A stretch of 37,418 nucleotides of DNA from a virus (lineage: Duplodnaviria > Heunggongvirae > Uroviricota > Caudoviricetes), in the IMG/VR virus record IMGVR_UViG_2695420585_000012; one strand, written 5' to 3'. The translations under genes were made by a program, and so were the position numbers. Position 1 is the first letter of the stretch; every line of letters starts with the position of its first letter. The notes below the pieces were generated by a model. That model was not told the DNA's origin. It made no database searches and worked only from the letters and a program-made list of their open reading frames with translations. Positions 21,800 to 36,287 of the stretch are shown here, piece by piece.

Positions 21800-23566
21800 A
21801 TGAACACCACACTGACACCCGCAGATCTCGATCCCCGTCGGCAGGCCATGCTGCTGTACTTTCAGGGATACCGCGTAGCCCGCATTGCTGAAATGCTGGG
21901 CGAGAAAGTTGCAACCGTTCACAGCTGGAAAAAACGCGACAAGTGGGGTGACTATGGGCCGCTGGATCAGATGCAGCTCACCACCGCCGCACGCTACTGC
22001 CAGCTCATTATGAAGGAGCACAAAGAAGGGAAAGATTTCAAAGAGATTGACCTGCTGGCGCGCCAGTCGGAGCGCCACGCGCGGATCGGCAAGTTTAACA
22101 ATGGCGGCAACGAAGCCGACTTAAACCCTAACGTCGCCAACCGCAACAAAGGCCCGCGCCGTCAGCCGGAAAAGAATGTTTTCACCGATGAGCAGATTGA
22201 GAAGCTGGAAGAAATCTTCCATTCCTCCATGTTCAACTACCAGCGCCACTGGTGGGAAGCCGGAAAAGCCAACCGCATCCGCAACCTGCTGAAGTCACGC
22301 CAGATCGGCGCGACCTTTTACTTTGCCCGTGAAGCCCTGATTGACGCCCTGCTTACCGGACGTAACCAGATTTTCCTTTCCGCCAGTAAGGCACAGGCCC
22401 ACGTCTTTAAACAGTACATCATCGACTTCGCCAAAGAAGTGGAGGTGGAGCTGAAAGGCGATCCGATGGTGCTTCCCAACGGGGCCACTCTTTACTTCCT
22501 CGGCACCAATGCCCGCACGGCCCAGAGTTACCACGGCAACCTGTATCTGGATGAATATTTCTGGATACCGAAATTCCAGGAGCTGCGCAAAGTGGCTTCC
22601 GGTATGGCTATTCACAAAAAATGGCGACAAACCTATTTTTCCACGCCATCCAGCCTGACCCACAGTGCTTATCCGTTCTGGTCCGGTGCGCTGTTCAACC
22701 GTGGACGCAACAAAGCCGACAAGGTGGACATCGACCTGTCCCATAGCAATCTGGCCCCCGGCCTGCTGTGCGCAGACGGGCAATACCGCCAGATAGTCAC
22801 CGTGGAAGATGCGGTGCGCGGCGGCTGTAACCTGTTCGACCTTGACCAGTTGCGCATGGAGTACAGCCCGGACGAATACCAGAACCTGCTGATGTGCGAG
22901 TTCGTGGACGATCTCGCGTCCGTGTTCCCGCTCAGCGAGCTGCAGGCGTGCATGGTGGACAGCTGGGAAGTCTGGACCGACTTTCATGCTCTGGCCCTGC
23001 GCCCGTTTGGCTGGCGCGAAGTGTGGATCGGTTATGACCCGGCAAAAGGTACGCAGAACGGCGACAGCGCCGGATGCGTGGTGGTGGCACCGCCAGCCGT
23101 GCCGGGCGGTAAGTTTCGCATTCTTGAGCGTCACCAGTGGCGCGGGATGGACTTCCGCGCCCAGGCTGACGCAATCAAAAAACTGACCGAGCAGTACAAC
23201 GTGACCTACATCGGCATCGACTCAACCGGCGTTGGTCACGGGGTTTACGAGAACGTGAAAGCGTTCTTTCCTGCCGTCCGGGAGTTTGTCTACAACCCCA
23301 ACGTTAAAAACGCCCTGGTACTCAAGGCCTACGACATTATCAGCCACCGCCGTCTGGAGTTTGACGCCGGACATACCGACATTGCGCAGTCATTCATGGC
23401 AATCCGTCGCGCCACCACCGCCAGCGGCAACCGCCCGACCTATGAAGCCAGCCGCAGCGAAGAAGCCAGCCATGCCGATCTGGCCTGGGCAACAATGCAC
23501 GCACTGTTTAACGAACCGCTGCAGGGCGAGTCCGCCAATACCAGCAATATTGTGGAGATTTTTTGA
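21800..23566 (+). CDS. P: Terminase large (ATPase) subunit gpP
   Basis: 588-aa ORF, P2 gpP-like; divergent from O and overlapping Q start. Confidence 0.9.
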   Translation: MNTTLTPADLDPRRQAMLLYFQGYRVARIAEMLGEKVATVHSWKKRDKWGDYGPLDQMQLTTAARYCQLIMKEHKEGKDFKEIDLLARQSERHARIGKFNNGGNEADLNPNVANRNKGPRRQPEKNVFTDEQIEKLEEIFHSSMFNYQRHWWEAGKANRIRNLLKSRQIGATFYFAREALIDALLTGRNQIFLSASKAQAHVFKQYIIDFAKEVEVELKGDPMVLPNGATLYFLGTNARTAQSYHGNLYLDEYFWIPKFQELRKVASGMAIHKKWRQTYFSTPSSLTHSAYPFWSGALFNRGRNKADKVDIDLSHSNLAPGLLCADGQYRQIVTVEDAVRGGCNLFDLDQLRMEYSPDEYQNLLMCEFVDDLASVFPLSELQACMVDSWEVWTDFHALALRPFGWREVWIGYDPAKGTQNGDSAGCVVVAPPAVPGGKFRILERHQWRGMDFRAQADAIKKLTEQYNVTYIGIDSTGVGHGVYENVKAFFPAVREFVYNPNVKNALVLKAYDIISHRRLEFDAGHTDIAQSFMAIRRATTASGNRPTYEASRSEEASHADLAWATMHALFNEPLQGESANTSNIVEIF

Positions 23567-24603
23567 TGGGAAAGAGTAAGAAAAACCGCGCTGCGGCGAC
23601 GAATCAGATCCAGTATAAAAAACAAACTTCAGCCGAAGCATTCAGCTTCGGTGATCCCGTTCCTGTTCTGGACCGCCGCGAATTACTGGACTATGTGGAA
23701 TGCGTACAGATGGACCGCTGGTACGAGCCACCCGTAAGTTTTGACGGACTGGCGCGAACATTCCGCGCCGCCGTACACCACAGTTCACCAATTGCAGTGA
23801 AATGCAACATTCTGACCAGTACCTACATCCCTCACCCGCTGCTCAGCCAGCAGGCTTTTTCACGTTTTGTGCAGGACTATCTGGTATTTGGTAACGCCTA
23901 CCTGGAGAAACGCACGAACCGCTTCGGTGAAGTTATCGCCCTTGAACCTGCCCTGGCAAAATACACCCGACGCGGATTAGACCTGGATACCTACTGGTTT
24001 GTGCAATACGGCATGACCACGCAACCGTATCAGTTCACGAAAGGCAGCATTTTTCACCTGATGGAACCGGACATCAACCAGGAGATCTACGGCCTGCCCG
24101 GTTATCTTTCTGCCATTCCGTCAGCCCTGCTCAACGAGTCCGCCACGCTGTTCCGCCGAAAGTATTACATTAACGGCAGTCATGCTGGCTTCATCATGTA
24201 CATGACCGATGCTGCGCAGAACCAGGAGGATGTGAACAACCTCCGCAACGCAATGAAAAGCGCCAAAGGTCCAGGCAACTTCCGCAACCTGTTTATGTAC
24301 TCACCTAACGGCAAAAAGGATGGTCTTCAGATTATCCCGTTGTCAGAAGTCGCGGCAAAGGATGAATTTCTGAACATCAAAAATGTTAGTCGCGATGACA
24401 TGATGGCCGCGCATCGTGTTCCGCCACAGATGATGGGGATTATGCCGAATAATGTTGGGGGTTTTGGGGATGTGGAGAAGGCTAGTCTTGTATTTGTTCG
24501 CAATGAATTGATGCCACTACAGAAGCGACTACATGAACTAAACGAATGGGTGGGTGCAGAAGTAATACATTTTGATGACTATGTTTTAGGTGTTCAGGAA
24601 TAA
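23563..24603 (+). CDS. Q: Portal protein gpQ
   Basis: 346-aa ORF, P2 gpQ-like. Confidence 0.9.
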   Translation: MMGKSKKNRAAATNQIQYKKQTSAEAFSFGDPVPVLDRRELLDYVECVQMDRWYEPPVSFDGLARTFRAAVHHSSPIAVKCNILTSTYIPHPLLSQQAFSRFVQDYLVFGNAYLEKRTNRFGEVIALEPALAKYTRRGLDLDTYWFVQYGMTTQPYQFTKGSIFHLMEPDINQEIYGLPGYLSAIPSALLNESATLFRRKYYINGSHAGFIMYMTDAAQNQEDVNNLRNAMKSAKGPGNFRNLFMYSPNGKKDGLQIIPLSEVAAKDEFLNIKNVSRDDMMAAHRVPPQMMGIMPNNVGGFGDVEKASLVFVRNELMPLQKRLHELNEWVGAEVIHFDDYVLGVQE

Positions 24604-24606
24604 AAG

Positions 24607-24632
24607 AAAAGGCGCTAATCTCAGCGCCTTTT
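24607..24632. terminator. Bidirectional rho-independent terminator between Q and the convergent cargo operon
   Basis: AAAA-GGCGCT-aatctc-AGCGCC-TTTT: perfect 6-bp stem flanked by an A-tract and a T-tract. Confidence 0.6.
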
Positions 24633-24649
24633 ATCTAACTAACCATATA

Positions 24650-24988
24650 TTAACAAACAGCGTATAAACCATCAAATCCAACGGAATGAACCTTTTTTGA
24701 TGCTACTTCATTGCTACGGCGTTGGATCACTTTTGCAATACTTTTTAAAATTGAAGGGGATGCATTGCGAACCTTAACCTGACTCAAAACTTTGGTTACA
24801 CCGAATTTCACTACCAAAACACCAAAGATTTCATCAGAGTATGATTCTGAAATTGAATAAACACCGCTCAGGTCTAAATCTACGGTATACCCTTCTTTAA
24901 TGAACCCTTCAATCTTGTGTCGTTGGGGGATAGCCTGATTGCGCGAAGCCAGGTCACCCTCGGGTAACTTGTATGCGATTTTGTTCAT
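24650..24988 (-). CDS. STAS-like (anti-sigma-factor-antagonist-like) small protein, cargo
   Basis: 112-aa ORF whose start overlaps the stop of the upstream ATPase gene; central DLSGV...SISESYSDEIFGVL segment resembles STAS/DUF4325-type domains (recalled, not searched). Confidence 0.45.
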   Translation of the reverse strand: MNKIAYKLPEGDLASRNQAIPQRHKIEGFIKEGYTVDLDLSGVYSISESYSDEIFGVLVVKFGVTKVLSQVKVRNASPSILKSIAKVIQRRSNEVASKKVHSVGFDGLYAVC

Positions 24989-25962
24989 TACTCTCCTCCT
25001 AACGCCCGCATTATTTCCATAAGCTGAGGGTCATTTTCTTCGCTATCTTTATCGACTGCCAGTTCATGAATCTTAAAACGGCAAGAAATTGCTACACCCG
25101 GCCATTCAGTACGTAATTCAGTATAGCTCACTTCATCACCTATTGCTTCTAAGCATACATTTCCTGAAGCCAGTTGCAATTCCCCATTATATGTTTTTAT
25201 CAATTTCATCAAGTGATATAACCCAAGCCCTTGATGATTATTATCTTTTTCTTTGACCGAAACCCCGTGACCAAACACACTACCCCCAATAAAATCCTGG
25301 GGAAGTTGCTGTGCCCAATCATCCTGCAAATCAGCATGCTTAGATGAATGTCCCTCTTGAATACACCATGCGATCGCATCCTGGTGAGTCTCAATTCCGG
25401 GTATACCAGCTCGCCGCAATTCTCGGAGAAATCCTAACCCACAGTCCGCCAAAGAAAATTCTAAATAGTGCTCTTTTCTTTGTGTGTGGGGTACAGCCGA
25501 ACGTTGTGCAAAAGAAAAACCCGTTGATTTTCCATGCGACCAAACGTTATCGTGAAGCTCACCTATAACATGTGTTAGATCTGTAAGTCCCTTGGGATAA
25601 TCTCTCGGATCACGATCAGGGAATGTTAACTGCCTTACACAACTGTTAATACTACCAGTGGCAACGTCAACAGCTTCAACATTGGTTAATGCTGTAACCA
25701 AACTGTAATTTCTCCCAACATTTACACGTTCCTGTTGATACTGATCCTCGCCCCATAAAGCACCATGTAAATTGATAGCTCGCATATAGTCAGGGCATGA
25801 CAAAACGCAGTTATCTTCGGTAATTTTGTGATGATTCACGTAAGCTGCTAAGACAGTGATAAAACCAGGATGCCAATGGTTGTTTGGCAATTGCAATTCA
25901 TTAGTTTCCTTTTGATGAAACGCAGCGGTATGCACAATAGCGTCTTTTAATCCTAACCCCAT
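24988..25962 (-). CDS. GHKL/Bergerat-fold ATPase (histidine-kinase-like, RsbW/SpoIIAB-type) with N-terminal extension, cargo
   Basis: Visible N-box ELHDNVWSH, G1 box DCGLG and G2 box GLGLYHL; lower GC than structural genes. Confidence 0.6.
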   Translation of the reverse strand: MGLGLKDAIVHTAAFHQKETNELQLPNNHWHPGFITVLAAYVNHHKITEDNCVLSCPDYMRAINLHGALWGEDQYQQERVNVGRNYSLVTALTNVEAVDVATGSINSCVRQLTFPDRDPRDYPKGLTDLTHVIGELHDNVWSHGKSTGFSFAQRSAVPHTQRKEHYLEFSLADCGLGFLRELRRAGIPGIETHQDAIAWCIQEGHSSKHADLQDDWAQQLPQDFIGGSVFGHGVSVKEKDNNHQGLGLYHLMKLIKTYNGELQLASGNVCLEAIGDEVSYTELRTEWPGVAISCRFKIHELAVDKDSEENDPQLMEIMRALGGE

Positions 25963-26020: not shown

Positions 26021-26075
26021 AGATCCCGACACTCTTGAATCATACTAAATTAAGGCATATACCACACAGCGCGCG

Positions 26076-26094
26076 CTCGTATCCCCGCCACGCC
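26076..26094 (-). other. cos: Candidate cos site (cohesive-end sequence)
   Basis: Minus strand reads GGCGTGGCGGGGATACGAG followed by CGCGCGCTG, closely matching the recalled P2/186 ends (GGCGAGGCGGGGAAAGCAC followed by TGCGCGCTG). Confidence 0.35.
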
Positions 26095-26294
26095 TGCCCA
26101 CTTTATGTAGTGGTTTTCATGCACCTGCATGACATAAGCAAAAGCACGCCAGTTCTGGCTGGCATCAGCGAAAACGATCGTCATACTATCATGCGATCTC
26201 ATGCGCCATATGAAGTTTTCCTGACACAGCCTTGGGTTGGGATAACACCTAACTCAGGAAGATTTTTTGTGTGTTTGTAACCCACACCTAGAGT

Positions 26295-27464
26295 TTACCA
26301 ATCCATGTTTGCGGCATTATCCATCTCACGAGTTAAGTAATTAACAAATAAGTCCATATTCCTTTCTGATTTCATCGCCTCCGCATAGGTTCCATTAGTT
26401 ACGTAAGATAGTATTAAAGGACATCCAGATTCAATATAAATTTTTGCTGGGGACAGTTCTCCCTGCCACAAATTTTCAAGAAAATCGTTAATTAATTGCA
26501 TTGCTTCAGGTGCCAAAAAATGCACACCATTTCCAAACTTGAAACGTTCTTTATTTTCTCGATGAGGCAGCAATAGTGGCACAGCCCCTACACTTGAGTG
26601 AAATTCCAATGCTTGCCCATCCTTACCGAAGGCGCCATGGGCTACAAAATTACGCACCTGTTTTCTGAGTATAAGTAAACGATCATAGAACAATTTTAGA
26701 CTGGAAGAGTTAATATCAATGGCTAATTTGAATTTCTCCCCCCATTCTTTTCCAACTTTATCAGCCACATCATTCCCATTTTTTATCTCACCCTTCAAGA
26801 TTGCAATAAGAATGAAAACATGCTCGGTCCAATTGAAAAATGACTCAATTGCAGACGTTGCTAACCACATAGCCTCTCTTCGGAGTTCAATTATCTTATT
26901 TGATTGTTCAAAAGTGGATTGTAACAGGCTGAAAAAATTATCAGACTTAAACTCACTATCAACTTCCAGTTTAGACTCTTGGCCAGCAGCAACTTCATCA
27001 AGCTTCTGTTTATATAGCTCTAAAAAATAGCAAAACCTATCATAAAGAGAATTAGCATTGTTATTAACATTTAGATTTGAAGTCTTTGCTGCATTGTCTG
27101 CAAGCGAGTCAAAAAAATTCGTAGCAGCTTTAACCCCTGCGCAAATATGTCTCAAAACAGTTTTAGCTTGCTCTATATCATCATCACTCTTGATAAATAT
27201 ATCTAAACCAAGTTTACGATGTTCTATAATTACGACAGTCCCATCAATCCGGACTGGGATAGAAAAAGAAATCTTCTCATCAACCCCACGATTTTTAAAT
27301 TTCAGTAAATCTACCAAAAGAAAATAAACGAGATAATACGGAGGTAATGAGTCTCCCAAACCCGAGCGCTTACCCCAAAAATATTCATCAAGCTCGGCAG
27401 ACTCCATTGTCCCTATGACTCTTCGGACGCGTTCTTCAACTTTAGCCAGATCCATTCCCCACAC
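26295..27464 (-). CDS. Hypothetical cargo protein with HEPN-like RNxxxH motif (possible Abi-type RNase)
   Basis: 389-aa AT-rich ORF between the SOS-regulated small gene and cos; motif ILRKQVRNFVAHG. Confidence 0.55.
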   Translation of the reverse strand: MWGMDLAKVEERVRRVIGTMESAELDEYFWGKRSGLGDSLPPYYLVYFLLVDLLKFKNRGVDEKISFSIPVRIDGTVVIIEHRKLGLDIFIKSDDDIEQAKTVLRHICAGVKAATNFFDSLADNAAKTSNLNVNNNANSLYDRFCYFLELYKQKLDEVAAGQESKLEVDSEFKSDNFFSLLQSTFEQSNKIIELRREAMWLATSAIESFFNWTEHVFILIAILKGEIKNGNDVADKVGKEWGEKFKLAIDINSSSLKLFYDRLLILRKQVRNFVAHGAFGKDGQALEFHSSVGAVPLLLPHRENKERFKFGNGVHFLAPEAMQLINDFLENLWQGELSPAKIYIESGCPLILSYVTNGTYAEAMKSERNMDLFVNYLTREMDNAANMDW

Positions 27465-27625
27465 CGCCTTTCAATATCACTTAAGGTATTACAGCCAATG
27501 ACATCGATTAAATACAGCGTAGATAATAGGCAACTTGCTACTGTTTTCAAGGGCTTTCTGTTTCAATCCTTAGTTGACCTTGCTGACGCGAGAATCTAGT
27601 TCTCACGCCAGCAACGCCCCTGCTG

Positions 27626-27814
27626 CTAACCGAGAAGATCCATTACACGGTTATATTCATGGGCACGAATTTTCGCCATCAACTCATCAGTCAGCTCTGA
27701 AACCCACTGCAGAGCCAGCCCCTTCTCTTCATCACTACACTCACTAGCCGCTACAAGCTTAAGAAAAAAATCAATGCGCTGGAGCTTCAAAGACTCCAAA
27801 AAATAGTCCTGCAT
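27626..27814 (-). CDS. Small SOS-regulated protein, possible Tum-like antirepressor
   Basis: 62-aa ORF from the internal ATG with GGAGG Shine-Dalgarno; LexA box in the promoter; the 96-aa track ORF would begin upstream of the operator. Confidence 0.5.
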   Translation of the reverse strand: MQDYFLESLKLQRIDFFLKLVAASECSDEEKGLALQWVSELTDELMAKIRAHEYNRVMDLLG

Positions 27815-27856: not shown

Positions 27857-27872
27857 ACTGTTTATATTTACA
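27857..27872 (-). promoter_or_regulatory. LexA box (SOS operator) overlapping a putative promoter
   Basis: CTGT-TTATATTT-ACAG matches CTGT-N8-ACAG with AT-rich spacer; minus strand has TTTACA, 17 nt, TACTGT around it. Confidence 0.6.
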
Positions 27873-27967
27873 GTATATAATAATCTTACTGATGTAAAAC
27901 GTTTTTTTACGTTCATCAGCCTGATATGCCTGGTATTATTAAGAGCACGAATTGTTAATCCGCGTAA

Positions 27968-30382
27968 TTAATACAGGTTCCGCCACTTATCATCTTCCCA
28001 CAAACGCTGGTTCCGATAGAAGATACGCAAGCCTGCTCCTGACGGAATACTGCCGCCGCGAAGGAGTAAATCGACCTCTTTCTCGCTGCCATCAAATCCT
28101 CTGGACTTCAGCTCATAGACGAGCTGCAGTCGCTGATGGTCTGTAATTCGCTGTTTGTAGTCTTTACGCCGTTTCGGTTTAACCAGGCGTAACCTTGCTG
28201 CCAGTTCCCGGCGCTCTTTTTTGCTCATACTGTGCAGGTAATCGTGCAACTCCTTGTCATCCATGCGGGTAATGTCCGTTCTGGTGTCCCCATCAGCTGA
28301 TTTATCTTTCTCCTGTTGGTTCAAATTTTCAGCAAGGGGACAGTTATTGCCACGAGTCCAAGGGGCGCAAGCGCCCTGGTCGGCTGCCGCCTCCTGAACG
28401 TCAACGGCTTTACGAACCATTTTCCACTTCACTGCATGAGTGCAGATCTTGCCCTCTGCAATGGGTGACCAGATGCCATAAATACGAATGCCGTGATCGC
28501 CATAGGCGGTCGGCTCTTCGTTGATTTCATAAGCGGTTCTGATGAGGTGATATTTACGGGGAACCAGTACGCCGCCCTGCTTCATGATGTAGGTGGCAAA
28601 ACAACCAGCATCAGCAGCAGCCAGAATGGCATCAAGACGCGGGTTATCCAGTACCGGCACACCTGCTTTTTTGTCACCCTGTTGCCTTGCCGCCTGACCA
28701 GCCAGCAAGCGAAGTTCACGGTAAGCCTGACGCCCCGGAATACCAAAGAAGCGGAATTGCTGAACACGATGCAGAGACGCCCAGGCATTCACGTATTCAG
28801 CGTTATCACGCAGAGATTTACCCGTTTCCTTGCTGATCTCGCCAGCCAGACCACGACCGTCAATGTTCTTACTGATATATTTCGCGATGTAGCTTGTCGG
28901 CGTTCCTTTGCGCGGGTTAATCAACTCAGACTTAAAGCGCGGCCCAGTGTTATTGCCCAGCTCCTCGCGGTCTTCACGGATGGCAAACTTACGCAGTAAT
29001 GCAGTGATGGCACGGCGGTCTTTTTTGCGCATGAAACACAACAGGTGCCAGTGAACTGTGCCATCATGATGCGGCTCAGCCACCCGCACGCCATACCAGC
29101 GCAACCCGGCTTTGTGCATCGCCTTACGAAATGCAGCAAACATGCCGACCAGATAATCGCTGCTTTGTCTTACCGTCGCGTTTGTCCAGGTCGGGTTTGG
29201 TCTGCCGTTATTTAGCGTGGAATGGAAACGCGACGGACAGGTGATAGTGTAGAAAACGGCGCAGTCACCGCGCATTTCCGCGATAAGCTCCAGACCTTTA
29301 ACACAGGCCATCATCTCATTGCGGCGATGCGCAGGGTTGCTGCTGCTGGCGTTTACCACATCCTCCATGTCCAGCGTGTCGCCGTCTTCGTGCACCAGTT
29401 CATGAGAACGGAAAAACTCCAGCGACTTACGGCGCTGCTCACGTTTATGCATCACGGCTTCATAGCTGACATAAGGAGATGCTTTTTTGCTGACCAGGCA
29501 AACAGCGCGCAACTGCTCTTCCCGCCATTCGCAACGCATCTTCCATAATTTCCGATACCACCAGTCGGCGCACAACATACGCGCCAGCGAACCCGGAATG
29601 AGTTCATAGGGCACGGGTTTACGGCGGTTTCTTTTCCGACGGAGTTGCTCAAACGCAGGTGGGATGACATCCAGACGCAGGGTTTCCGCTGCCACCTTTT
29701 CCCATGTCTTGCGGATTTCTTCTGGCTTAACGTCATCGGTGGCATACAAATCACCACAAGCTGCATCAAGGCACATACTCATATGCGCAGCTACCAGGGT
29801 GGACAGGCGTTTCACCTGATCCTGACTCATTTCAGGCAGGATCAGCAGGCCGTCCAGCCCTTCATGGCTTGCCATAAAGCGAAAAGATGCAGATAGCTGA
29901 CTGTCGCGTACATGCTCCAGTCGTTCCAGACATGGCTTAATCGTCTCACGTAAATAGCGGGAATAAGCCTTTGGCCTGCCCAGGCTGCTGAAGTATTCAA
30001 TACGTTGCATCAGCGGCTTGCTGATATGGGAAGGCTGGGCGTTGACGTCCGCCAGAATGACCATGTCTGAATTAAAACGCTGCTGCTCATGCGCCAGCTT
30101 TGCCCGGCTAATGAGCTTATCCTGCTCCATTTCGCGCTGGACAGGATCACGTGATTCATTAAAGAAATAACGCTCCCAGACCTGATCACTCAGTGCCTCG
30201 CGGCGCAACTGTTCCTGCTCGTTATCGGCAGCGTACAGAGTGATCAGGTTTGAAAGCGTAGAAACCGGCGCAACTTCCGCCGGGTCCAGATAAGGGTTAA
30301 TGGCCTTTTTCGGGCTGTTCCATGAGAATGCTGCGGCAGCCTCGTTAAAGCCGCAGCAGTTGTTCATATCGGCATGACTCAT
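27968..30382 (-). CDS. A: Replication initiation protein gpA (rolling-circle nickase)
   Basis: 804-aa ORF, P2 gpA-like size and early-operon position. Confidence 0.85.
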
Positions 30383-33125: not shown

Positions 33126-34082
33126 ATGTCAACACACAAAATCACATTTCGCCATGTTGATGATGCAATGAAAACTGTAATCATGCAGAATCGTGGAGGA
33201 CAACAGGTCATTGACCGAATTTTGAAAGCTTATGGCTTCACTTCACGTCAAGCATTCTGTAACCACTTAGGGATATCCCAAAGCACAATGGCGAACAGAT
33301 ATGCTCGTGATACCTTCCCTGCCGACTGGGTCATAATCTGCAGCATGGAAACTGGCGTGTCGGTTGAATGGTTGGCATTTGGTACCGATAACACAGTAGA
33401 GGCTGTCACACATAATACAGAACAGAACCACCATAAAGATGGTAAGGAGATTCATTCTCTCACTTTAGACACAAAATCCCCAAATGAGAACAATACTCAC
33501 CGAAAGAACGAGAGCCTCATTGAGGTTAATCAAGGAGGAAAAGCGGCAATCGAGCGAATAGTTATCGCCTATGGATTTAAGACAAGGCAAGCTCTAGCGG
33601 ATCACATTGGTGTTTCAAAAAGCACATTAGCCAATCGTTACATGAGAGATACCTTTCCAGCTGATTGGATCATCCAGTGCGCACTTGAAACCGGAGCTTC
33701 ATTAATGTGGCTAACAACCGGTAATGGTCCTGTCTTTGAAGACGCTAAGAGCGATATTATTGCTATCACACGGAAAAAAGTTATAAATGGTATGTTGTTT
33801 GATACAAATTATCTCCCTTTTGATAAAACCATGTTACCCAGCAAGGTGAAAAAACCCATATCTATAGTAGATGAAGGAAATGTATATCTTGCAGACAAAG
33901 CATTTGATGAAGTAACCGATGGAAAATGGTTAGTTGAAATCGAAGGAAAATTTAGTGTTAGAGATCTAACCAGAATTCCAATTGCAAAAGTAAAAGTATC
34001 TAATGAAAGTACAACTTTTGAATGTCTATTAGCGGATATTAATGTAATAGCAAAATGTTTTGGTATATATAAGGATATTTAA
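33126..34082 (+). CDS. CI-like immunity repressor with duplicated N-terminal domain
   Basis: 318-aa ORF; two ~62-aa repeats each with an AYGF...ANRY.RDTFPADW...ETG...WL.G pattern, ~58% identical to each other, then a C-terminal domain; resemblance to 186 CI is from memory. Confidence 0.7.
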   Translation: MSTHKITFRHVDDAMKTVIMQNRGGQQVIDRILKAYGFTSRQAFCNHLGISQSTMANRYARDTFPADWVIICSMETGVSVEWLAFGTDNTVEAVTHNTEQNHHKDGKEIHSLTLDTKSPNENNTHRKNESLIEVNQGGKAAIERIVIAYGFKTRQALADHIGVSKSTLANRYMRDTFPADWIIQCALETGASLMWLTTGNGPVFEDAKSDIIAITRKKVINGMLFDTNYLPFDKTMLPSKVKKPISIVDEGNVYLADKAFDEVTDGKWLVEIEGKFSVRDLTRIPIAKVKVSNESTTFECLLADINVIAKCFGIYKDI

Positions 34083-34865
34083 ATGACAGACCTTCCTAAC
34101 AATGAAGAGATGCTTCTTTATGCCAAAAGGAACCTTGAGTTTTTCATTAAAACATTCTACTTACACTTTTATTCTGACATTGAGTTATTGCAAGCCCCAG
34201 CTCAACCTGAAACAGAAGAACAACGACTGAAACGCTTAATATCCGAAAAAGAGAGTTTCTTTCAATCTGGCTTGGTAATACTTTTTAATTCTGCTGAAAT
34301 ATATCTAAAGTCTATAATTGCTGAGCATAGTGTTTATTTACTTTTAAAAGAAGTAAAAGACTGCTATAAAAACAAATCTTTTTTCGAATGTTCAACATTA
34401 GACGCAACCGAACTACATAGAATAGCACAAAGTATCAGTGGGCGAAATCTTTCACCGCGCTTTAATGAAATTTATGATATTTTGCGCAAAGAAAGAAATA
34501 AAGTAATTCACTTAGGTAAAAGTAATAATAAAGAAATACGTAAAGACTTTTTAAGTGCATTTCTAATTTTTCGAGAGGAGATATATCAAGAGCCTCTTAA
34601 TAACCTGGTTCATTGCTTGATAAATGATAAAAACATGCCTGAACAAAAATTAGTCGAGGCAAAGAAAAACTATGCAGCAAGCATTATAGACATGATGAAA
34701 ATATTTTTTCCTTTAGATGATATTTTAGCCAACATATATAAGATTGATGGAAAACCGAAAAATTGGAATGTTTGTACTAATTGTCAAACTCCGGGGAAAA
34801 CACTCGCCGTCATATCTAAAACTAAATCAATTTGCTTATCATGTGATTTTAAAATAGGATTGTAA
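34083..34865 (+). CDS. Hypothetical cargo protein with HEPN-like RNxxxH motif and C-terminal CxxC...CxxC ribbon
   Basis: 260-aa AT-rich ORF starting immediately after the repressor stop; motif ILRKERNKVIHLG; C-terminal CTNCQ...CLSCD. Confidence 0.55.
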   Translation: MTDLPNNEEMLLYAKRNLEFFIKTFYLHFYSDIELLQAPAQPETEEQRLKRLISEKESFFQSGLVILFNSAEIYLKSIIAEHSVYLLLKEVKDCYKNKSFFECSTLDATELHRIAQSISGRNLSPRFNEIYDILRKERNKVIHLGKSNNKEIRKDFLSAFLIFREEIYQEPLNNLVHCLINDKNMPEQKLVEAKKNYAASIIDMMKIFFPLDDILANIYKIDGKPKNWNVCTNCQTPGKTLAVISKTKSICLSCDFKIGL

Positions 34866-34867
34866 AC

Positions 34868-35938
34868 ATGGAAAACTTAAAATACATACCTTTTAATCAA
34901 GTAGATTTTTCTGATGTTTTTTTTGACTCTTTAAAATCCGATTATGCTCATGGGTTTATTGATTGGTTCCATTCTAAATGTAAATCAAATGATTATGCAT
35001 ATGTCCTTTATGATGAACAAAATAAAATTGATGGTTTTTTGTATCTAAAAACAGAAGTAGGTATCATTGAAGATACAAAACCAAATATTCCTGATGGTAT
35101 TCATCTAAAAGTTGGAACATTTAAATTTAATCCAAAAGGAACTCTTCGTGGTCAACGATTTTTAAAAAAAATATTCGATCACGCTCTAGATAATAATGCT
35201 AACAATATATATGTGACTGTTTTTGAAAAACATGACTACTTAATTAGACTATTCAAAATCTATGGCTTTATAGATATTGGAGTAAAAGAATCTGAAAATG
35301 GTGTAGAGCGAGTACTAATAAAAGAAATGAATAGTAATGCTCTTACGGGCGATATACTGTCAGATTATCCATTTATTAATAACAGAGGCAGTGAAAATAA
35401 ATTCTTGCTTTCAATATACCCCGTATTTCATACTCGTTTATTCCCTGACTCAAAATTAATTACAGAGTCACCAGACGTTGTTGCTGATGTATCATATGCA
35501 AATAGCATTAGAAAAGTATATATTTGTGGCATGTCAGATGTTGAATTAATGAAGCCAAACGATATAATCGTTATATACCGAACATCCGATAATCAAGGGC
35601 CTGCATATTACCGTTCTGTTGCTACTTCTTTATGTGTAGTAGAAAAAGTTAGAAATATAAACTCTTTCGTTACAGAGAAAGAATTTCTAAATTACTGTTC
35701 TAGATATTCTGTTTTTACAGAATCTGAGCTTAAAAGTTTTTATAGAACAAAAAAATACCCATATATTATAAGCTTTACATATAACCTTGCTTTGCCCAAA
35801 AGACTAAATCGTGCTAAACTTATTTCTGAAGTAGGATTATCCCCGCGAGCTTACTGGGGGATCATGAAGTTAACAAACGAACAGTTTAATAGCATTATTA
35901 AACTTGGTGGCGTCAATGAAAGTATTATTGTCAATTAA
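34868..35938 (+). CDS. Hypothetical cargo protein, possible GNAT-like N-terminal domain
   Basis: 356-aa AT-rich ORF 2 nt after the preceding stop; segment GTFKFNPKGTLRGQRFLKKIFDHAL...YGFIDIG loosely resembles a GNAT acetyl-CoA-binding region; C-terminal half unassigned. Confidence 0.45.
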   Translation: MENLKYIPFNQVDFSDVFFDSLKSDYAHGFIDWFHSKCKSNDYAYVLYDEQNKIDGFLYLKTEVGIIEDTKPNIPDGIHLKVGTFKFNPKGTLRGQRFLKKIFDHALDNNANNIYVTVFEKHDYLIRLFKIYGFIDIGVKESENGVERVLIKEMNSNALTGDILSDYPFINNRGSENKFLLSIYPVFHTRLFPDSKLITESPDVVADVSYANSIRKVYICGMSDVELMKPNDIIVIYRTSDNQGPAYYRSVATSLCVVEKVRNINSFVTEKEFLNYCSRYSVFTESELKSFYRTKKYPYIISFTYNLALPKRLNRAKLISEVGLSPRAYWGIMKLTNEQFNSIIKLGGVNESIIVN

Positions 35939-36287
35939 CCCAGAGCATGTAGAAAAAATCCTTAATGGAACAAAGAAATTTGAATTCCGAAAAGGAATTT
36001 TCAAAAAACCGGATGTAAAATCTGTGGTTATTTATTCAACAATGCCTGTCGGTAAAGTTGTTGCTGAATTTGACATTGCAGATGTTATAGAAGACAAGCC
36101 AAGTATTGTATGGGAAAAAACAAGCCAATACGCAGGTATCAGCAAACAATTTTTTGACTCATATTTTCATAGCAAAGAAAAAGCCTTTGCTATAGAAATT
36201 GGCAATCTAAAAATCTATGATCAACCGCTTCATCTAAGTTCATTAGGTGATAACATAACGGCCCCGCAATCATATCGGTACTTATGA
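35916..36287 (+). CDS. ASCH-domain (PUA-like) protein, cargo
   Basis: About 123 aa from MKVLLSINPEHVEKILNGTKKFEFRK, matching the ASCH hallmark GxKxxExR as in E. coli YqfB; overlaps the end of the preceding gene. Confidence 0.6.
   Translation: MKVLLSINPEHVEKILNGTKKFEFRKGIFKKPDVKSVVIYSTMPVGKVVAEFDIADVIEDKPSIVWEKTSQYAGISKQFFDSYFHSKEKAFAIEIGNLKIYDQPLHLSSLGDNITAPQSYRYL

Follow-up and report, generated by a model that had tools for sequence, protein, structure and literature searches.

HEPN enzymes normally act as dimers, in which two Rx4-6H motifs form one active site. The toxins among the small HEPN proteins are paired with an adjacent nucleotidyltransferase (MNT) antitoxin that neutralises them. 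HepS, encoded by the Gifsy-1 prophage of Salmonella, is described as a solo HEPN abortive-infection (Abi) protein that needs no antitoxin, rests as an inactive tetramer, is activated by phage tail-tip proteins and cuts tRNA anticodon loops (PMC13043305). In DS-11 (CBS-HEPN) and other validated HEPN systems, mutation of the HEPN catalytic residues abolishes defence (PMC13092281). Here, we analyze a single open reading frame (ORF) of a P2-like prophage (IMG/VR record IMGVR_UViG_2695420585_000012); the window is the whole stretch of 37,418 nt, and all coordinates refer to it. The product of this gene, hereafter the target, is probably a self-contained single-protein anti-phage defence of the Abi type, based on a HEPN ribonuclease (RNase) domain. 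It represents a new, uncharacterised family and architecture within the well-known HEPN class, and has already been flagged computationally.

An earlier sequence-only reading of the locus had noticed a HEPN-like RNxxxH motif in a large gene. The ORF exists on the minus strand and spans 389 aa from a GTG (Table 1). Since homologues and NCBI annotations place the start at an ATG three codons after this GTG (MDL...), the true product probably has 386 aa rather than 389. The motif is present too: residues 265-277, ILRKQVRNFVAHG, contain R271, N272 and H276, and RNFVAHG is the only Rx4-6H site within the protein. By itself, the motif does not exceed chance expectation and is weak evidence, because 62% of shuffles of the protein hold some Rx4-6H (2% hold RNxxxH); the weight is carried by conservation. 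In 35 homologues with 43-67% identity, R271, N272, H276 and G277 are invariant, and 19 full-length members chosen from the most divergent ones (20-34% identity), a Sinorhizobium plasmid protein among them, all have RNxxxHG. The arginine is directly followed by the polar residue N272 in every one of the 54 aligned sequences. The only polar residues with at least 95% conservation in the deep alignment are N135, E214, K244, R271, N272 and H276. Variation of the motif among homologues had been named beforehand as an outcome that would refute the sequence-only reading; every aligned homologue down to 20% identity retains RNxxxHG.

We modelled the full-length protein with AlphaFold2 using a 35-sequence alignment (predicted local distance difference test, pLDDT, 87.3; predicted TM-score, pTM, 0.82). 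In the model, residues 1-135 form a separate alpha/beta domain, and the C-terminal two thirds adopt a HEPN-like helical fold, with the invariant R271-N272-x3-H276 at the HEPN position. The putative HEPN core begins with a long helical hairpin, whose arms (137-170 and 174-223) we take as helices 1 and 2. An insert of two short helices (230-248) comes next, then helix 3 (254-274), and finally helix 4 (318-332), which is separated from helix 3 by a beta-hairpin (286-298). R271 and N272 close helix 254-274, while H276 opens the next loop. The HEPN fold is described as a four-helix up-down bundle, often with inserts between helices 2 and 3; the motif lies where a helix ends or the next loop begins, its arginine is usually followed by N, D or H, and helix 2 carries a conserved acidic residue (PMC3710099). 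The bundle with its helix 2-3 insert, the motif placement and the polar residue after the arginine are all matched by the model and the alignments. The invariant acidic residue in putative helix 2, as assigned from the model, is E214; it has no K or R at position +4, unlike the frequent HEPN Ex3[KR] pattern. A missing HEPN fold was the other outcome named beforehand as refuting, and it did not occur, as the model layout fits the published description. We consider it very likely that the target carries a domain of the HEPN superfamily.

Residues 271-300 are among the most conserved blocks of the protein. The lowest AlphaFold confidence of the target falls at residues 271-320 (window 26505-26654), with pLDDT of 57-69; block-wise conservation and model confidence are uncorrelated overall (Spearman 0.11). 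Plausibly, the catalytic loop and hairpin of the model (271-300) may need oligomerisation or a bound substrate to become ordered.

The target gene lies in the P2 gpA-portal hotspot, a known defence hotspot. In P2, old encodes an ATPase-TOPRIM nuclease with fold and chemistry different from those of HEPN. The gpA-portal interval is the slot of old/tin in P2 (PMC9122126), and the target gene occupies the same position in this P2-type prophage, as had been claimed; no homology between old/tin and the target was detected with PADLOC, Pfam or NCBIfam. P2 Old is reported to act also on tRNA (PMC12445682), and AriB of PARIS, like P2 Old, to be a tRNA nuclease. The low-GC interval containing the target gene is bounded by gpA and the portal gene. 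The low GC content noticed earlier is real, 0.378 in the gene and 0.389 in its cassette, compared with 0.530 in gpA and 0.554 in the phage structural genes. The slot is not occupied by this gene alone, as had been supposed, since a cassette of a GHKL-like ATPase and a STAS-like DUF4325 protein lies between it and the portal gene. The gene had also been placed between an SOS-controlled gene and cos. The first part holds, as there is a LexA box ahead of the 62-aa ORF directly upstream; cos could not be located, as a P2 cohesive-end sequence had no match in the window with up to three mismatches and a comparison with phage records did not settle its position.

The gene was found in 10 of 5,426 complete Escherichia coli genomes, always with at least 99.7% identity. 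It is exchanged singly among hotspot variants: in E. coli 1283, the same gene (99.9% identity) has other neighbours towards the portal gene, and E. coli DG342-2 has the GHKL/STAS pair and lacks the target gene. Thus the gene both resides in a defence hotspot and is horizontally mobile.

The same protein appears in two published data sets. In the P2-hotspot table of Rousset 2022, it is listed as system 156, which occurs 11 times and has no domain; it was found in none of the other searchable supplementary files of that study. In Table S10 of DefensePredictor (Science 2026; PMC13092281), it is listed as WP_032248694.1 with the mean log-odds of 10.6, the strict cut-off being 4, and the label "Predicted novel defense gene"; the fields for known defence homologues are empty or FALSE. 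The best HHblits match given there is Csm6/Csx1, with the probability of 56% over 3.6% of the query. The protein is missing from the tables of tested or validated units in the searchable DefensePredictor supplements, and a full-text search for its accession found nothing. Together, the fold and motif conservation, the single-gene status (see below) and the machine-learning score as a novel defence gene support the candidate defence or Abi role proposed in the sequence-only reading.

The family is broad. A 90%-clustered database contains more than 1,000 relatives, every one annotated as hypothetical and devoid of Pfam domains, with lengths nearly always of 380-400 aa. When the C-terminal half served as the query of an exhaustive profile search, 666 clusters (at 50% identity) were obtained with E <= 1e-3 and 469 with E <= 1e-10; the search did not reach named HEPN families, the best 150 matches being the target's own family. 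Relatives occur in 202 species-representative genomes from at least 10 phyla. A 633-aa outlier (P0152), considered as a domain fusion, proved to be an ordinary member whose unannotated N-terminal extension probably stems from an over-called start.

We then analyzed neighbours in 80 loci, using BLAST to cluster 770 neighbour ORFs as well as 36 upstream ORFs that are similar in size. No neighbour family occurs in more than 10 of the 80 loci, and those that recur do so at variable positions; the 36 upstream ORFs are unrelated to one another, and no MNT family is among the 25 most frequent neighbour families. As this clustering gave no conserved family, we rejected the ideas of a two-gene system and of an antitoxin partner. 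A search for an RNA partner found no Rfam family in the cassette and no repeats inside it. With no conserved neighbour and a gene moving alone between hotspot variants, the single-gene status claimed earlier stands. The genes closest by tend to have functions in defence, as toxins or in mobile elements: GajB/UvrD-type helicases, toxins (RES, PemK, Fic, HipA), reverse transcriptases, Mrr, a Type ISP enzyme, type I restriction-modification (R-M) systems and an OLD-like ATPase-TOPRIM protein, besides a relaxase and a coupling protein of the type IV secretion system.

These data bear on the possibility that the target acts as the toxin in a toxin-antitoxin or addiction module stabilising the prophage or other mobile elements, with a small unrecognised ORF or an RNA as the antitoxin. 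The small HEPN proteins that resemble it structurally include chains named as HEPN toxins of toxin-antitoxin systems, its homologues are found on plasmids and conjugative elements and beside HipA, PemK and RES toxins, and its 185-nt leader, containing a 15-bp hairpin, is unusually structured, folding better than shuffles (z -2.7). This has to be set against the variable neighbourhoods on both sides of the gene, the unrelated upstream ORFs, the absence of MNT from the 25 most frequent neighbour families, the cassette devoid of repeats and Rfam families, and the precedent of HepS, a solo HEPN protein harmless at rest. We regard a toxin role as distinctly unlikely.

A different partner is suggested by Klebsiella (L003-L006) and one metagenome bin (L055), where a homologue with 59-61% identity begins 13 bp after a 1093-aa ResIII/DEAD/Helicase_C gene. 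The Klebsiella homologue has 61% identity. The helicase gene follows hsdR-hsdM-hsdS, in Klebsiella within a type I R-M island that ends at an integrase gene, and this subfamily may form a helicase-plus-HEPN operon. Moreover, a superfamily 1 or 2 helicase adjoins the gene in about a tenth of the loci. One could then see the target as one component of a multi-gene system, an effector of an adjacent helicase or restriction module that in this prophage is orphaned or depends on host factors. However, the helicases come from different families and in both orientations, most loci have none, and P2 hotspots carry the gene without a helicase and with interchangeable neighbours, which makes such a role very unlikely.

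Several observations weigh against a HEPN-based defence function. The motif, the only evidence of the sequence-only reading, is one that chance would frequently produce. No above-threshold match to the target came from Pfam, NCBIfam, PHROGs or PADLOC, and with PADLOC v2.0 there was none at E up to 1. The closest approaches, both sub-threshold and both over the motif, were Csx1_HEPN from Pfam to the target (E = 0.051, 14.4 bits, cut-off 23) and HEPN_MAE_28990 to one divergent member (E = 0.016, 15.9 bits, cut-off 26.8); together with the published HHblits match, which also falls on the motif, they count as weak signals in favour of a HEPN domain. In the Pfam scan of 35 members, a HEPN model reached E < 1 in one only. 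No curated HEPN profile reaches its threshold, and hence none of the defined HEPN families includes this one by sequence. Searching the PDB with a sequence profile returned nothing even at E of 10, and Foldseek against the PDB gave coiled-coil noise only, with nothing at E <= 0.001. The gene was not found by tblastn in 50,697 phage records, and some homologues lie beside housekeeping genes such as the one for urocanase. The overall validation rate of DefensePredictor is 45% (PMC13092281), and our literature search found no paper characterising the target and no experiment on its family. Still, of all the alternatives, the one in which the target is not a HEPN protein at all seems to us the least probable.

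The last point against concerns the motif itself. The HEPN domain of AbiA from Lactococcus (PDB 8oz7) has an intact RN...H motif and a role in dimerisation, but showed no detectable RNase activity in vitro (PMC11077055), and hence an intact motif is no guarantee of catalysis. The target could have a HEPN fold without being a defence nuclease. It might lack catalysis and bind RNA or DNA or act as a scaffold, or else be an RNase serving the phage's own biology, such as RNA processing, lysogeny control or counter-defence. The resemblance of its N-terminal domain to nucleic-acid-binding modules fits such roles, and the hotspot cargo does include non-defence genes (partition systems, toxins). On the other hand, the strict invariance of R, N, H and E down to 20% identity favours catalysis over scaffolding, the presence of the family in at least 10 phyla, mostly outside prophages, disfavours a P2-specific role, and the DefensePredictor score is high. 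A non-defence function is thus unlikely in our view, and we retain the single-protein Abi-type defence as the preferred reading.

How does this protein compare with other HEPN systems? The N-terminal domains of RnlA and LsoA are tandem TBP-like repeats. Neither such repeats nor the RnlA-type HEPN (DBD) domain and adjacent antitoxin of RNase LS were found for the target, and the 80 loci gave no sign of the adjacent cognate antitoxin of the HEPN-MNT modules, with no conserved neighbour and no MNT among the 25 most frequent neighbour families. The small HEPN proteins that it resembles structurally (5yep SO_3166, 8xdj and 7ae2, and also 1jog HI0074, 1ylm, 1wwp and 2hsb) have ca. 120-145 residues, whereas the target has three times that size. 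By sequence, the target touches a single HEPN family, Csx1/Csm6, through the Csx1_HEPN and the published HHblits matches, but it has no N-terminal CARF domain and no association with CRISPR-Cas; distinctive beta-hairpins have been described in Csx1 HEPN domains (PMC3710099). The structural match to AbiA is only partial, and we take the matching part to be the AbiA HEPN domain; no RVT match to an AbiA-type reverse-transcriptase-like polymerase domain was found. The HepS motif is R100-H105, compared with R271-H276 here, and the 135-residue alpha/beta domain and long helical hairpin of the target are not mentioned in the HepS description, the two proteins being compared by description only. Finally, DS-11 and other validated HEPN systems share with the target a one-protein sensor-plus-HEPN plan and a place in the E. 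coli accessory genome; the sensor domain of DS-11 is CBS, whereas the putative sensor of the target is tentatively TBP/KA1-like, and the target is listed only in the prediction table S10.

This tentative assignment comes from weak matches of the modelled N-terminal domain to TBP/KA1-like folds. The domain comprises helices 6-16 and 43-53, strands 67-73, 76-83 and 86-91, and helices 94-113 and 115-128. Its conserved elements are LPPYYLVYF, E63-K64 and R83-K84-x-G86, and in the model the conserved K64, K84 and G86 could form a binding patch.

Under the preferred reading of a single-protein Abi-type defence, the following sequence of events may be proposed. By analogy with HepS, the protein would rest as an inactive, auto-inhibited oligomer, and as it would be auto-inhibited at rest, no antitoxin would be needed. 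The conserved low-confidence block 271-300 might become ordered only in the oligomeric state. The N-terminal domain would either sense a phage cue or hold the RNA substrate, and activation would proceed via this domain or via a rearrangement of the oligomer. The activated protein would cleave host and phage RNA in a metal-independent manner, with tRNA anticodon loops being the likeliest target, again by analogy with HepS; translation would then halt and the infection abort. While the fold, the invariant site, the single-gene status and the genomic context are shown by the data, we infer from such parallels that the protein cuts RNA, what would trigger it, which RNA it would attack and that the infection would abort.

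The coordinates of the target gene, its domains and the surrounding features are collected in Table 1. The 1.4-kb cassette with the gene is absent from the hotspot variant lacking it. Across the three variants compared, the cassettes differ on either side of the common 142-bp linker, and the linker may be a candidate junction where cassettes recombine. The promoter-like site upstream of the gene is a consensus match only, as such sites are no commoner in the region than in shuffles. The 15-bp hairpin is not a canonical intrinsic terminator because it has no U-tract, and the terminator scan finds no terminator-like site there; it may act as an insulator, a processing site or a weak terminator. 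The LexA box lies in the phage backbone, so that SOS read-through into the cargo is possible, yet it is no property of the cassette. The WP_001154428 family, to which the 62-aa ORF belongs, heads many hotspot arrangements (Rousset 2022), and in some relatives a DinI-like gene lies just downstream of this ORF.

Table 1. Positions of the target gene, its predicted domains and neighbouring features in the 37,418-nt window
Feature	Position	Strand	Basis or remark
Target ORF	26295..27464	minus	389 codons from GTG 27464; stop codon 26295-26297
Probable target coding sequence	26295..27455	minus	386 aa from ATG 27455
N-terminal alpha/beta domain, residues 4-135	27060..27455	minus	model
Putative HEPN core, residues 137-332	26469..27056	minus	model and PMC3710099 description
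C-terminal helical region, residues 333-389, conserved NMD(W/F/Y) C-terminus	26298..26468	minus	alignments and model
RNFVAHG, Rx4H catalytic-type motif (R271, N272, H276, G277)	26634..26654	minus	invariant in alignments
Codon of E214 (in WTEH), invariant acidic residue in putative HEPN helix 2	26823..26825	minus	alignments and model
Residues 271-300 (RNFVAHGAFGKDGQALEFHSSVGAVPLLLP), among the most conserved blocks	26565..26654	minus	majority-residue frequency 0.76-0.90
Swappable cassette, 1.4 kb	26211..27638		blastn against L001 and L002
Linker, 142 bp, common to all three hotspot variants compared	26069..26210		blastn
Sigma-70 promoter-like site TTGAAA-16-TATTAT	27523..27550	minus	10/12 consensus matches; inside cassette, upstream of gene
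15-bp hairpin without U-tract, at upstream cassette edge	27580..27614	minus	directly after stop of 62-aa ORF
Terminator-like hairpin with T-rich tail, downstream of gene, within linker	26146..26165	minus	terminator scan
LexA box TACTGTAAATATAAACAGTGG, near-consensus	27858-27873	minus	ahead of 62-aa ORF; outside cassette
Conserved 62-aa backbone ORF, phrog_698	27814..27626	minus	directly upstream of target gene
gpA replication endonuclease	27968-30382	minus	flank of low-GC interval
Portal gene	23563-24603	plus	other flank of low-GC interval
Second hotspot cassette: 324-aa GHKL/HATPase_c-like ATPase (phrog_3364) and 112-aa STAS-like DUF4325 protein	24650-25962	minus	between target and portal
Region with bidirectional terminator hairpin (AAAAGGCGCTAATCTCAGCGCCTTTT)	24567-24679		in 46-bp gap between convergent portal and STAS genes
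Second cargo locus, very low-GC block (0.29-0.32)	34083-36287	plus	between cI (33126-34082) and integrase (36366-)

By these data, the prophage carries at least three candidate defence units, as the very low-GC block forms a further cargo locus. In the second hotspot cassette, the stop of the GHKL-like gene overlaps the start of the DUF4325 gene, and the DUF4325 protein matches a part of DISARM DrmA (PADLOC, E 2e-6). This cassette corresponds to P2-hotspot system 112 ("DUF4325", 28 occurrences), and the "HATPase_c | DUF4325" pair is present in P4 hotspots as well (Rousset 2022). It occurs independently of the HEPN gene, and we found no published experimental test of it. In the very low-GC block, genes of 356 aa and 127 aa (with an ASCH domain) match A and B of the PADLOC candidate system PDC-M11 (E 2e-130 and 5e-48, respectively), preceded by a 260-aa gene with a weak DUF3644 match. 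The terminator region between the portal and STAS genes has sub-threshold Rfam matches to STnc40, a Salmonella small RNA, on both strands (33.4 and 29.6 bits, gathering score 45), which are probably a mere terminator resemblance.

HEPN RNases are among the commonest effectors of bacterial immunity, yet the family described here has no name and no profile in Pfam, NCBIfam, PHROGs or PADLOC. The target sits in one of the best-validated defence hotspots, and the compact 1.4-kb cassette with the native upstream DNA makes it easy to test. Should defence fail, it would be an informative false positive for the tools of defence prediction. A bolder possibility, which we regard as doubtful, is that the target founds a new and widespread family of immune sensors, each consisting of one protein: its TBP/KA1-like domain would directly recognise a phage nucleic acid or protein, ordering the flexible residues 271-300 across the oligomer interface and switching on the HEPN RNase. 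If so, both the activation route and the sensor module would be unlike those of HepS, Tha, Cas13 and Csm6. If the Abi-type defence reading is true, the family would add a new sensor-effector architecture to the class of solo HEPN proteins opened by HepS. Its profile would annotate many proteins now called hypothetical, and would give insight into what the TBP/KA1-like module senses.

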